From contig JAHFHJ010000001.1 in NCBI GenBank assembly GCA_023246985.1, forward strand, positions 18,514 to 45,022: a DNA stretch of 26,509 nt. The letters are read 5' to 3'. The position numbers and the translations under genes are program-made. The number at the start of each line of letters is the position of its first letter. Positions within the stretch are counted from its first letter, which is position 1. The notes under the pieces were generated by a model. It did not search any database. It was not told where the DNA came from and was given only the letters and a program-made list of their open reading frames with translations. This DNA is from Candidatus Omnitrophota bacterium. GTDB lineage: Bacteria; Omnitrophota; Omnitrophia; Omnitrophales; Aquincolibacteriaceae. Shown here piece by piece: positions 20,633 through 23,070 of the stretch.

Positions 20633-21072
20633 AGACCTTCGCCCTTCTTCCTGGCTTCCTCCTGGACCTTCAGGAATTTGGCTTTATGGCTGAAGTCCTG
20701 GGTCTCGGCGACTTTAGCGGCTCCGACTTTCACAAGAAATTCATTGAGAAGAACTTCCTGCTCGTCAGGGACCTCATTCAATTTAAACGGAAATTTCACG
20801 TATTTTGCCTGGAGATACGCGTAGGCGGACTCTTGGGCTCCCGGAGCGGGATGGATCAGCAACTGAAATTTCAGGTCCTGCTTCTGCGCAAGGACCCGCA
20901 GGACCGAGATCCCCTCCGCGTCCATCTGGATCCCCGCCAAAACAACCCGTTTTCCGTCGGCGAGCGTCAGCGTCCCGTCCCCACCGACCTCCGTGACAAC
21001 CTCCGCGCAAAGAATCGCCGGCGCCCCGATCAGCAGAACCAGTATCATGAAAACAAAAATCGCCTTTTTCAT
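20611..21072 (-). CDS. Secreted thermonuclease (SNase)-like domain protein, probably degenerate
   Basis: Signal peptide; VTEVGGDGTLTLADGKRVVLAGI and LNEFLVKVGAA...FLKVQEEARKKGEGLWS match the SNase scaffold. Confidence 0.7.
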   Translation of the reverse strand: MKKAIFVFMILVLLIGAPAILCAEVVTEVGGDGTLTLADGKRVVLAGIQMDAEGISVLRVLAQKQDLKFQLLIHPAPGAQESAYAYLQAKYVKFPFKLNEVPDEQEVLLNEFLVKVGAAKVAETQDFSHKAKFLKVQEEARKKGEGLWSYEAS

Positions 21073-21101
21073 CTCTTCCTCAAGGACGCGCTGAAGGCGT
21101 C

Positions 21102-21506
21102 TTATGACGGAAAGCGTTTATAGCGGATCATTTCCCCCTTAGCATAAATACGGCCTTGCGGAAATTTTGAGGCCGTAAGATCGGGCCAATATTGCATGTG
21201 AATAACCGCCTCCGCCTGATGATTTTTCCTGGCGACTTTGAGGATCTTCTCATTCAGCAAATCCCGCAAATAAGCCTCCTGCGAGATATTCTCAAAGCGA
21301 CCGAATGTGATCCACTCCCAAGCCTGGCCGAAGATTCTCCTGTAGGAAATCCGGGGTGCCGGGCGATCGACCTCGATCGAACCGAGCGAGTCGTACGACG
21401 GGTTGAGATCGCCCTGTATCGCGACAACCTTCTGCACCCTGGAACATCCACCATGCATACCCAAAATCATGACCACACTCAACATCAAAGCCCATGAATA
21501 TTTCAT
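21102..21506 (-). CDS. Putative lipoprotein, YbjQ-like fold (tentative)
   Basis: Signal peptide ending HGG-C21; YDSLGSIEV...A..N.QAEAVIH...YAKGEMIRY pattern; GGAGGG RBS at 21519-21514. Confidence 0.55.
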   Translation of the reverse strand: MKYSWALMLSVVMILGMHGGCSRVQKVVAIQGDLNPSYDSLGSIEVDRPAPRISYRRIFGQAWEWITFGRFENISQEAYLRDLLNEKILKVARKNHQAEAVIHMQYWPDLTASKFPQGRIYAKGEMIRYKRFPS

Positions 21507-21529
21507 GTTAAATCCCTCCGTTGAAGTTT

Positions 21530-21647
21530 CTATCCTTGTCTGAAACTTGATTTCTTAAATGGTTGACAAGGATTGCCCCAATTTCAACTTCGCCGAAATT
21601 GATAAATATTGGGACTATCCTTGTCTGAAACTTGATTTCTAAAATGG
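21530..21647. repeat. 33-bp direct repeat (2 copies, 32/33 identical) with a partial inverted copy in the 52-bp spacer
   Basis: CTATCCTTGTCTGAAACTTGATTTCT(T/A)AAATGG at 21530-21562 and 21615-21647; GACAAGGATTG at 21565-21575 is the reverse complement (10/11) of the repeat's first 11 nt. Confidence 0.9.
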
Positions 21648-21713
21648 CAGTTGGAACGGCCCCCTCCCGTCAGAGGCGGGATGATCGACATTGGGGACCA
21701 TTATACCTTTCGT

Positions 21714-23057
21714 TTACGGCAAGTGTCTGATCTTTTGCTTGGCCCATGCGAGCGCCTCTTCGCGGGTCTCATGCGTTCCTTCCAGCTGAAGCTCGTAAAG
21801 TTCTTCAAGCACCGGTTTCATGGCCGGACCGGGCTTCATGCCAAGGTCCATCAGATCGTGCCCGTTCACGAGCGGCTTGGGTTTGAGCTCCTCATTTGCG
21901 TACTCCTTGAGCTTGTCCTGGAGGAACGCGAGATTATCCAGCATCCCGTGGCTCGCCGTGCAATCCGCGCGGTGGAGCTCCATTTCGTCCTTAAAATGCG
22001 GGCGGCTGATGAATTGCTTCAGTTTCCCGGCCCGCATTTTCTGAACCTCCATGAATTTCATATGATTGGCCACGCATTCCGCGACGCCGTCGATCTCCTC
22101 GTTGGAGAATCGCAGCCGTTTCATGATCTCACACGCGATCTTCACGCCTTCCTCGGAATGCTCGTAAAAAGTCAGCCGCCCCTTGCGGATCGCGGCCGTC
22201 TTGGGCTTCCCGATATCGTGAAAAAGCGCGGCAAACGCAAGAGTTGTCGAGACCGGAGGATGAAAATGCTCCAGAAGGAGCCGGGTATGTTCATAGACAT
22301 CGCCCTCGGGATGAAAATTTTCGGGCTGCTTGACGCCGCGCATTGTCTCGACCTCGGGAAGGATCTCTTTCATAAGCCCCGACTCGGAAAGAAGCACGAA
22401 ACCCCGCGCCGCGCCGGCTCGCGTGAAGATCTTCACGATCTCTTCGCGGATCCGCTCAGGGCTCACGGCATGAATCCCGGAAGCCTGCTTGCGAAGCGCG
22501 TCCCATGTTTTTTTCTCGATCTCAAAACCCAGCGTGGAGGCAAAACGGATCGCCCGGAGAAGCCGGAGCTTGTCTTCTTCGAAACGGGCTGCAGGATCCC
22601 CGATAGCGCGGATCACTTTCAGGGGCAGGTCTTCGAGACCCCCCACAAAGTCGATCACTTTCTCCGCGGACGGGTCATAAAACATCCCGTTCACCGTAAA
22701 ATCACGCCGCTTGGCGTCTTCCTCGGGCTGGGTGAAGGCGACATGGGCGGGATGACGGCCGTCCTGATAACCGCCTTCGCAGCGGAAAGTCGCCACCTCG
22801 AACGGGGCCTCTCCTTCCACAACGATCATCACGCCGAATTGCTTACCGACGGGGATCGTCTTGCGGAAGATCTTCTCGACCTCGTCAGGCGTCGCAGTCG
22901 TGGCGATATCAAAATCCCGCGGCCCTTGGCCCATCAGGTGATCGCGAACGCAACCCCCCGCGAAATAGGCGGTGAAGCCCCTCTCGCTTAGGGTCTTGGC
23001 GATCGCGAACGCAAGCCGTGCTTTCGGTTCGCTAAGGTCCATCGGTCCGGGATTCAT
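21714..23057 (-). CDS. cca: CCA tRNA nucleotidyltransferase with HD domain
   Basis: AGGCVRD..DFDIAT, EDAKRRDFTVN, EDKLRLLRAIRF, HPEGDVYEHT, ALFHDIGKP. The upstream segment reads VGKQFGVMIV, not the G-R/K-R/K-F signature of poly(A) polymerase. Confidence 0.88.
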   Translation of the reverse strand: MNPGPMDLSEPKARLAFAIAKTLSERGFTAYFAGGCVRDHLMGQGPRDFDIATTATPDEVEKIFRKTIPVGKQFGVMIVVEGEAPFEVATFRCEGGYQDGRHPAHVAFTQPEEDAKRRDFTVNGMFYDPSAEKVIDFVGGLEDLPLKVIRAIGDPAARFEEDKLRLLRAIRFASTLGFEIEKKTWDALRKQASGIHAVSPERIREEIVKIFTRAGAARGFVLLSESGLMKEILPEVETMRGVKQPENFHPEGDVYEHTRLLLEHFHPPVSTTLAFAALFHDIGKPKTAAIRKGRLTFYEHSEEGVKIACEIMKRLRFSNEEIDGVAECVANHMKFMEVQKMRAGKLKQFISRPHFKDEMELHRADCTASHGMLDNLAFLQDKLKEYANEELKPKPLVNGHDLMDLGMKPGPAMKPVLEELYELQLEGTHETREEALAWAKQKIRHLP

Positions 23058-23070
23058 TCCGCTCCATCGG

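Follow-up and report, generated by a model that had tools for sequence, protein, structure and literature searches.

Why should the leader of a small lipoprotein gene contain two nearly identical repeats that are able to fold in two mutually exclusive ways? The question was raised by 26,509 nt of contig JAHFHJ010000001.1 from a Candidatus Omnitrophota bacterium (the window, whose positions are counted from its first letter), in which a 134-aa lipoprotein gene on the minus strand (21102-21506, start codon ATG at 21506-21504) is preceded by a 171-bp block at 21530-21700. An inspection of the letters alone (the sequence-only reading) had described in this leader a repeat, an anti-repeat and a second repeat next to the ribosome-binding site, and had considered a cis RNA switch, a recombinase site or tandem operator, the remains of a miniature transposon and a two-repeat mini-array. 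The transposon option, in the wider sense of a miniature inverted-repeat transposable element (MITE) or a repetitive extragenic palindrome (REP), withstood the analysis described here, and the switch, the operator and the mini-array found no support. With a probability of about 85%, the block is a tandem dimer, made of two head-to-tail units of ~85 bp, of a dispersed, non-coding, modular repeat, that is, of selfish DNA akin to REPs and bacterial interspersed mosaic elements (BIMEs) or to MITEs.

A dispersed repeat made of two hairpins

The starting point was the pair of repeats itself. A repeat search bore out the two direct repeats of ~33 bp at a spacing of 85 that had been described: the 33-nt copies lie at 21530-21562 and 21615-21647, are identical at 32 of 33 positions (97%), and are separated by 85 nt from start to start. 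The genome that contains the window (denoted here as G000) is a metagenome-assembled genome (MAG) of Candidatus Omnitrophota with a size of 1.50 Mb, distributed over 185 contigs and 82.5% complete. Searching the 33-mer in the genome and its relatives had been proposed as a test of a MITE/REP-like family, and it fell out in favor of that option, as many copies were found. In G000 alone, seven copies were recovered at up to three mismatches and none with a reversed control sequence. When the whole intergenic region was used as a query for blastn with a short word, more than 100 matches were obtained, most of them to 21570-21617 (query positions 64-111), and in G000 they often stood 84-88 bp apart. 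After three rounds of nhmmer, 184 units had been collected; they are spread over 94 contigs out of 185 and grouped in 142 clusters (108 single, 28 double, 4 triple and 2 quadruple), and none of the 34 multi-unit clusters was of mixed orientation. Given some 180 occurrences of these sequences across the genome, a chance origin of the repeats at 21530-21700 is excluded.

The reading of several arrays revealed the architecture of the family: a unit of ~85 bp composed of two different hairpins. The first, module A, has a stem of 10-11 bp, variable between subfamilies but complementary in each (ATCCTTGTC/GACAAGGAT, ATCCCGAC/GTCGGGAT and CCCCCAAC/GTTGGGG are examples), closed by a T-rich loop of ~24 nt. 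The second, module B, consists of a CCCCAAT/ATTGGG outer stem surrounding an exchangeable inner hairpin, of which at least two types occur, AATTTCAAC..GTTGAAATT and ATCCCGCC..GGCGGGAT; 87 modules of the AATTTC type and 69 of the ATCCCGCC type were counted. The units are bounded by (C)TA, and neighboring units are joined head-to-tail through a common CTA. The two main types of module A are found with the two types of module B in all four combinations (40, 30, 29 and 15 cases), indicating that modules have been reshuffled between copies, and many units in G000 are identical in sequence. In addition, in the contigs of the groundwater metagenome from which the genome derives, the summed depth over module B was 3257, compared to ~25 in the flanks, and this ~130-fold excess fits the number of copies.

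The family makes up ~1% of the G000 genome and ~6% of its intergenic DNA. When the repeats were compared with the predictions of a self-trained open reading frame (ORF) caller, 88% of their bases fell outside called ORFs, the overlapping portion (1615 of 13915 bases) corresponding to weak calls. Clusters located between co-directional genes follow the orientation of the genes in 34 cases and oppose it in 28. The density of units is 0.69 per kb in co-directional spacers, 0.63 in convergent ones and 0.29 in divergent ones.

Stem conservation, distribution and empty sites

The stems of the repeat were found to vary in a compensatory manner. In an alignment of 42 diverse units from G000 and its relatives (A1), RNAalifold identified such changes at five of the six pairs of stem A. 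For a structure of 14 pairs, 90.4% of the alignment cells were paired, compared to 79.5% in shuffled alignments and 25-51% when the partners were slid, and 95 cells carried double changes versus 33 expected, a figure reached by none of 500 shuffles. The apex of the inner stem of module B also covaries across genomes, appearing as CAAC/GTTG, CCGC/GCGG, CAGA/TCTG, CCAC/GTGG or CCTC/GAGG. The mismatches in stem A showed no strand asymmetry (15 G.T versus 18 A.C) and this, together with the random orientation of the units, gives no sign that one RNA strand has been selected. The stems could be important in single-stranded DNA, in RNA of either direction, or in both, and we infer that the hairpins are relevant for the propagation of the element as single-stranded DNA or RNA.

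The distribution of the family was explored in two ways. Of 19 other members of the genus, 18 were positive for the repeat by blastn, and 21 genomes from other genera gave no match. A covariance model (R1) again gave 18 positive genomes out of 19, with 27 to at least 46 matches each, and additionally revealed 4 to 32 matches in five genomes belonging to three other genera of the same taxonomic family, as well as 1-4 weak matches in a few others. Judging from these searches, the repeat family is specific to a single genus of Omnitrophota and to some sister genera, in which its presence is patchy. The single negative member of the genus, G014 (97% complete, 1.5 Mb in 20 contigs), has neither the repeat, as searched with R1, nor a Y1_Tnp gene; it is the only one of the 19 genomes lacking both and offers a natural repeat-free comparator. 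The close relatives are Candidatus Omnitrophota MAGs recovered from groundwater, lakes and similar habitats.

Orthologous loci were compared as well. The gene upstream of the block (21714-23057, minus strand), which in our own interpretation encodes a putative CCA-adding enzyme or poly(A) polymerase-like protein, was used as an anchor, and seven relatives were found to have the same lipoprotein gene downstream of it, with products 47-71% identical to the one encoded here. None of the seven carries the element. What they do have, with the exception of locus L031, is a GGTATAAT box placed 20-45 nt before the lipoprotein ATG; it is conserved in loci L016-L019, L024, L030 and L042. In the window this box is found at 21700-21707 on the minus strand, at the 3' end of the upstream gene, as a promoter-like match of 10 out of 12 positions, and it is probably the -10 element of the lipoprotein promoter. 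In the closest relative, L017 (anchor protein 88% identical), a short A-rich leader with the Shine-Dalgarno sequence starts right behind the box. The window differs in that the 171-bp block comes immediately after the box (21707-21700), and ~10 nt separate the block from the Shine-Dalgarno sequence GGAGGG (21519-21514, minus strand). As the element starts directly downstream of the box, a transcript initiated from it would begin inside the element. The dimer would have been inserted between the -10-like box and the ribosome-binding site, stretching the presumed leader from ~20 nt to ~190 nt of strongly folding RNA.

Pairs in the reverse configuration were also identified. A unit at L011:1499-1587 corresponds to an empty site at G000:C18:8641-8739, and another at L025:2899-2986 corresponds to positions 23058-23070 of the window. 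The empty orthologous sites and these reverse pairs indicate an insertion that differs between species rather than a conserved leader, and the element is inferred to be, or to have been, mobile. The unit in L025 belongs to another stem subfamily (CTGGC../..CCAGTG) and separates the CCA-enzyme-like gene from the gene upstream of it; at this place the window has a 13-bp spacer. In L011, the upstream gene seems to stop at a TGA within the element (GTCTGA, in hairpin A) and the empty site has a TGA of its own; the element may supply stop codons.

Alternative pairings, assembly and CRISPR-like features

How, then, should the two mutually exclusive hairpins of the lipoprotein leader be understood? 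Both pairings do exist. Reading them off the sequence, hairpin A is formed by 21530-21540 with 21565-21575 (10 of 11 positions), whereas the composite hairpin B of the sequence-only reading corresponds to an 18-nt inverted repeat, 21565-21582 against 21608-21625, with 89% complementarity; it was also correctly noted that the latter would be transcribed first on the minus-strand RNA. This RNA folds with a minimum free energy (MFE) of -68.1 kcal/mol (z = -3.5 versus shuffled sequences). The MFE and the centroid structures both hold the long composite helix, the MFE fold leaving the last arm free, and in the centroid the Shine-Dalgarno sequence is unpaired. Hairpin A had been drawn as reaching position 21520, immediately beside the Shine-Dalgarno sequence. 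The extra pairing on which this was based, 21520-21528 with 21580-21588, is there (8 of 9 positions), but the element proper ends 10 nt before the Shine-Dalgarno sequence. The segment involved (GTTGAAGTT) lies just outside the element and matches the 3' arm of the module B inner hairpin (GTTGAAATT) at 8 of 9 positions, which gives rise to the extra pairing; the match may be due to chance, as the empty site of L017 has GTTGTCGTT.

A gene-specific cis RNA switch, in which the two exclusive hairpins would sense a signal and gate the ribosome-binding site of the lipoprotein gene, would account for these pairings, for the order in which they are transcribed and for an element ending 10 nt from the Shine-Dalgarno sequence. 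Nevertheless, we consider it highly improbable. The seven orthologous lipoprotein loci lack the element, its sequence is shared by ~140 unrelated loci, in either orientation, and the Shine-Dalgarno sequence remains unpaired in the centroid structure. In addition, the alternative pairing is a generic property of tandem units. When the arms follow one another as a..a', b..b', a..a', complementarity of a'b with b'a is unavoidable, and the exclusive hairpins are a geometric by-product of the tandem layout. Indeed, a composite helix with a long span and six or more pairs appeared in the MFE structure of 18 out of 31 other tandem pairs when the unit strand was folded, and of 22 out of 31 for the opposite strand, so it is not a device of the lipoprotein gene. 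A scan of 21000-22200 against Rfam with E-values up to 10 returned three matches at chance level (E from 0.47 to 3.6, far below the gathering cut-offs), and the locus thus shows neither of the usual signs of a riboswitch or cis-acting leader, a conserved orthologous position and a known RNA family. The reading of the hairpins as intrinsic terminators was dropped because no T-runs follow them, and a terminator scan found none within the element. Similarly, nothing supported the tandem operator or recombinase site, which might at most be a secondary property. Any effect of the element on the expression of the lipoprotein, through mRNA stability or translation, would be a side effect of the insertion.

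Equally hard to sustain is the notion that the block is an assembly artefact, generated by the mis-joining of repeat copies, or the remnant of a two-repeat CRISPR array. It is true that the MAG is split into 185 contigs and that 33 repeat clusters are located at most 300 bp from the end of a contig. Besides, the Logan contigs of the source groundwater metagenome, which are short over the repeats, never span the block, and the number of tandem units (two) is as given by the MAG assembly. However, unit 2 does not simply duplicate unit 1, from which it differs in its 3' arm and its type of module B; an error-free Logan contig of 71 nt covers 21615-21685, including a junction specific to unit 2; and tandem pairs with a period of 85 bp occur at 34 loci in this genome and also in better-assembled relatives. 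With respect to CRISPR, the length of 33 nt does resemble that of a CRISPR repeat, but the 52-nt 'spacer' is module B, conserved in ~150 copies, and arrays elsewhere (C181) have identical 'spacers'. The mini-array is therefore excluded, its 'spacer' being a repeated module.

Mobilization, host function and known repeat systems

Taking the block as a dimer of a dispersed repeat, it remains to be considered how such a repeat might spread. One proposal, which is a sub-hypothesis on mobilization and is compatible with the tandem-dimer explanation, is that the units are REP doublets (REPINs) moved in trans by a REP-associated tyrosine transposase (RAYT) of the Y1/HUH type, which would recognize single-stranded DNA hairpins and cut at or near a GTAG tag. 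We regard it as a tentative possibility, with odds well short of even. In its favor, 111 of the 184 units have GTAG directly before the 3' arm of hairpin A, within the hairpin loop (GCAG takes this place in 29 units, GTTG in 10), and the covarying stems suggest that structure, rather than sequence, is recognized. RAYT-like genes (NF047646, E from 1e-12 to 1e-19) are present in 15 of the 19 genomes of the genus, whose Y1 proteins have the REP-associated tyrosine transposase as their best NCBIfam match, and the repeat-free G014 likewise lacks a RAYT-like gene. GTAG-tagged REPs are, moreover, known in the Planctomycetes-Verrucomicrobia-Chlamydiae (PVC) superphylum (PMC3733652). However, the NCBIfam scores, 47-70 bits, lie under the curated cut-off of 80 bits; no Y1_Tnp domain (PF01797) was found in G000, which is only 82.5% complete; G006 and G019 are rich in units and gave no Y1 match; and unit 1 of the window has GTTG in the position of GTAG. 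The absence of an orientation bias (34:28) does not agree with the one expected of a lagging-strand HUH enzyme if genes follow replication. As for physical linkage, the first six RAYT-like loci had no units within 1.5 kb, and ten more yielded three one-sided neighbors, so that 3 of 16 loci have a unit within 30-260 bp, where ~0.6 would be expected, a point in favor of the proposal; against it, no RAYT-like gene has units on both sides, and several are accompanied by different palindromes of their own.

The units might instead be classical MITEs, that is, deletion derivatives of an insertion sequence (IS) encoding a DDE transposase (IS630/Tc1-like or IS5-like), with short terminal inverted repeats (TIRs) and duplication of a TA or TNA target. 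The size of 85 bp, the intergenic placement and the identical copies are typical of such elements. The ends of the unit are weakly inverted (TCCCRAC on the left and GTCCCAAT on the right, read inward) with TA on both sides, and the comparison of filled and empty copies of a second repeat family (see below), as well as that of the window with L017, is compatible with a TA duplication. In both of these filled/empty comparisons, however, the base before the left TA differs (C versus T), so the duplication is not clean. The TIRs span just 7-8 nt, and the internal stems covary, which would be needless for recognition by a DDE enzyme. The arrays are strictly head-to-tail (0 of 34 mixed), unlike what insertion into TA in random orientation would produce. 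Finally, neither PF13358 nor PF01609 was detected in G000, G010, G004 or G005, each with dozens of units; among five genomes, PF13358 (IS630-type) was found in none and PF01609 (IS4/IS5-type) just in G011. An autonomous element, pictured as a solo module A and a solo module B a few kb apart on one contig, was not found among the partial matches in this fragmented MAG. Considering all this, the MITE origin in its classical form is unlikely.

The flanks of the insertions, 107 on the left and 116 on the right, were also profiled. C, T and A precede the unit in 70, 54 and 68% of the clusters, and at the right end ~82% have TA after GGGAC. The filled/empty comparisons fit either a TA/YTA duplication or an insertion 3' of YTA without duplication, and head-to-tail arrays sharing CTA would be equally expected from insertion beside a resident CTA end or from unequal recombination. 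As to the enzyme responsible, our best guess, a weakly supported one, is a trans-acting protein that recognizes hairpins, for instance a RAYT-like Y1/HUH enzyme, rather than a DDE transposase. It is conceivable, but improbable, that together with the second family these units represent a new class of mobile DNA defined by structure, operating without a DDE transposase through recognition of single-stranded hairpins, building head-to-tail arrays by insertion 3' of its own CTA, mobilized either by the divergent RAYT-like proteins acting in trans on repeats that do not flank their genes or by another enzyme, and perhaps co-opted by the host as a widespread leader or 3'-UTR RNA module.

A further question is whether the repeat serves the host. 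Some REPs and BIMEs of E. coli do have host roles, and the element, irrespective of a selfish origin, might be a functional intergenic sequence (an RNA stabilizer, a processing site, a translational modulator or a site for nucleoid proteins or gyrase) that tunes the expression of the lipoprotein. The family has been kept across the whole genus with covarying stems; it is strongly intergenic and sparser in divergent regions, which contain promoters (0.29 versus 0.63-0.69 units per kb); the fold of the leader is far more stable than those of shuffled sequences; and the block is placed between the -10-like box and the Shine-Dalgarno sequence. On the contrary, the orientation relative to transcription is random (34:28) and the mismatches (15 G.T versus 18 A.C) favor no RNA strand, the positions of the units are not conserved between species, G014 lacks the family altogether despite being 97% complete, and the centroid fold leaves the Shine-Dalgarno sequence unpaired. 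A host function as the explanation of the element is, on balance, doubtful.

Several observations nevertheless weigh against the notion of the block as a dimer of selfish, mobile DNA. The evidence of mobility consists of presence or absence between species, and not of polymorphism within a population. There is no clear target-site duplication, the (C)TA junctions fitting two modes of insertion, and searches for PF01797 in G000 and for PF13358 and PF01609 in four repeat-rich genomes found no cognate transposase. Just 3 of the 16 RAYT-like loci have a unit at 30-260 bp, several of these genes having their own palindromes. Both stem covariation and patchy long-term retention are also expected of a domesticated functional element, and a host function such as that of an RNA stabilizer or a protein-binding site would be compatible with the covariation. 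The metatranscriptome of the same sample had no contigs over the region and is uninformative about its transcription.

The resemblance to known systems is partial in every case. REPs tagged with GTAG or CGTC have stems of 5-13 bp and loops of 2-20 bp, form dimers and tandem clusters and include members in the PVC group, and RAYT genes are flanked by their own REPs (PMC3733652). The Omnitrophota family is, like REPs, BIMEs and REPINs, a high-copy, extragenic, hairpin-forming repeat, built as a mosaic of a few palindromic modules with conserved linkers (in four combinations, with 34 multi-unit clusters), arranged in tandem clusters, specific to genus or species, variable in copy number between relatives, and often with GTAG beside a stem. 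Unlike REPs, which measure 20-40 bp and alternate in orientation, it has a fixed pair of different hairpins of ~85 bp. Its arm polarity alternates within the unit (a, a', b, b'), and whole units are strictly head-to-tail; the GTAG is part of the hairpin A loop, and the subfamily of the window does not have it. A REPtron, with a RAYT gene between such units, was encountered neither in G000 nor at the 16 RAYT-like loci of the relatives. Given that no RAYT gene is flanked in this manner and that the GTAG is in the loop and absent from the window subfamily, the family is best described as REP/BIME- or MITE-like, and membership in either class is not claimed.

Among bacterial MITEs, the Correia/NEMIS elements of Neisseria and the ERIC and RU elements of enterobacteria are non-coding sequences of ~100 bp with inverted ends, inserted at TA in intergenic regions, often co-transcribed with their neighbors and folding into long hairpins. 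The present repeat shares with them its approximate size, lack of coding capacity, weakly inverted ends, intergenic position and long hairpins, but differs in its TIRs of 7-8 nt, its covarying stems, its common head-to-tail arrays and the absence of a match to the DDE families searched (PF13358 and PF01609). The BOX elements of Streptococcus pneumoniae comprise boxA, boxB and boxC, of which one module can be present in a variable number of tandem copies. They are comparably modular, non-coding, intergenic and predicted to form stable stem-loops; however, they are unrelated in sequence and phylum, and in the family described here it is the whole two-hairpin unit that is repeated and the inner hairpin of module B that is swapped. 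As with the Rickettsia palindromic elements (RPEs), these are dispersed palindromes of ~100 bp in the small genomes of one lineage, but RPEs insert in-frame in protein-coding genes, and here 88% of the bases lie outside ORFs. No literature description of the family was found, nor any paper joining Omnitrophota and repetitive extragenic palindromic sequences, and the papers listed by a broader search make no mention of the phylum.

These findings remove a false lead, that of a dedicated riboswitch, operator or CRISPR relic in front of the lipoprotein gene, and they document, with structural covariation, a very abundant repeat family in an uncultured PVC lineage with small genomes. They have practical consequences as well: the family breaks up MAG assemblies (33 clusters are at contig ends), annotation pipelines may take its units for regulatory RNAs or CRISPR-like arrays, and strains could be typed with them as natural markers. 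With an element inserted between a promoter-like box and a ribosome-binding site, the locus constitutes a natural experiment on expression effects. Should the mobilizing enzyme be identified, the repertoire of REP/RAYT- or MITE-type systems would extend to Omnitrophota.

The two units of the window and neighboring repeats

Unit 1 (21530-21615, plus strand) comprises module A at 21530-21575 and module B at 21576-21615. Its hairpin A (5' arm 21530-21540, loop 21541-21564 and 3' arm 21565-21575, with the 10 of 11 pairs mentioned above) belongs to the 'CCTTGTC' stem subfamily, and its first 33 nt are the first copy of the direct repeat. Hairpin B is the commonest module of the family, with an outer stem of CCCCAAT at 21576-21582 and ATTGGG at 21608-21613 and an inner hairpin of the 'AATTTC' type pairing 21579-21585 with 21595-21601. 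A CTA precedes the unit (21530-21532), another at 21615-21617 is the junction common to units 1 and 2, and a degenerate CCA (21698-21700) marks the end of the block.

Unit 2 (21615-21700, plus strand) is a chimera of module types. In its module A (21615-21659), the 5' arm and loop at 21615-21647 are the second copy of the direct repeat, and the 3' arm region at 21648-21659 is of the other stem subfamily (GTTGG..ACGG type; row window:21615-21701 of alignment A1), so that its hairpin A cannot form. Its hairpin B (21660-21700) is of the second type, with a C-run at 21660-21664 facing a G-run at 21693-21696 and a GC-rich inner hairpin at 21665-21681 of the ATCCCGCC/GGCGGGAT type, for which nhmmer gave a match at C110:40142-40208. 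It is this chimeric nature, with a different 3' arm and a different type of module B, that makes the direct repeat end after 33 nt. The end of hairpin B at 21700 is also the end of the insertion.

A second dispersed family of ~80 nt was observed in G000, for example at C75:7619-7700, C16:2737-2820 and C77:7306-7390. It also has two hairpins, with stems TACCGCAT/ATGCGGTA and TACCGTT/AACGGTA, and is flanked by TAG and CTA. Its 20-nt end module occurs in 59 copies: 28 are empty, and in the other 31 units of the first family are nested within the second hairpin, in its loop. The end of this second family contains GGAGAA, in a few cases at Shine-Dalgarno distance from a start codon. Elsewhere in G000, runs of N, representing withheld bases or scaffolding gaps, adjoin units of the first family at C110:8990-9058 and from 11079 of this contig onward.

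Finally, the surroundings of four RAYT-like Y1 genes of the relatives, encoding ~224-248 aa, contain gene-specific palindromes, which flank the gene on both sides in L173 (G015:C31) and L174 (G009:C34) and are listed on one side in L172 (G001:C11) and L100 (G017:C147). The palindromes flanking RAYT genes include TCCGACC..GGTCGGA, TGTACACACC..GGTGTGTACA and ATCCAACCT..AGGTTGGAT, and this REPtron-like layout suggests the existence of further REP families in the genus. One such palindrome, in L173, is set inside a CCCCAAT..ATGGG frame, in a manner similar to the inner hairpin of module B.

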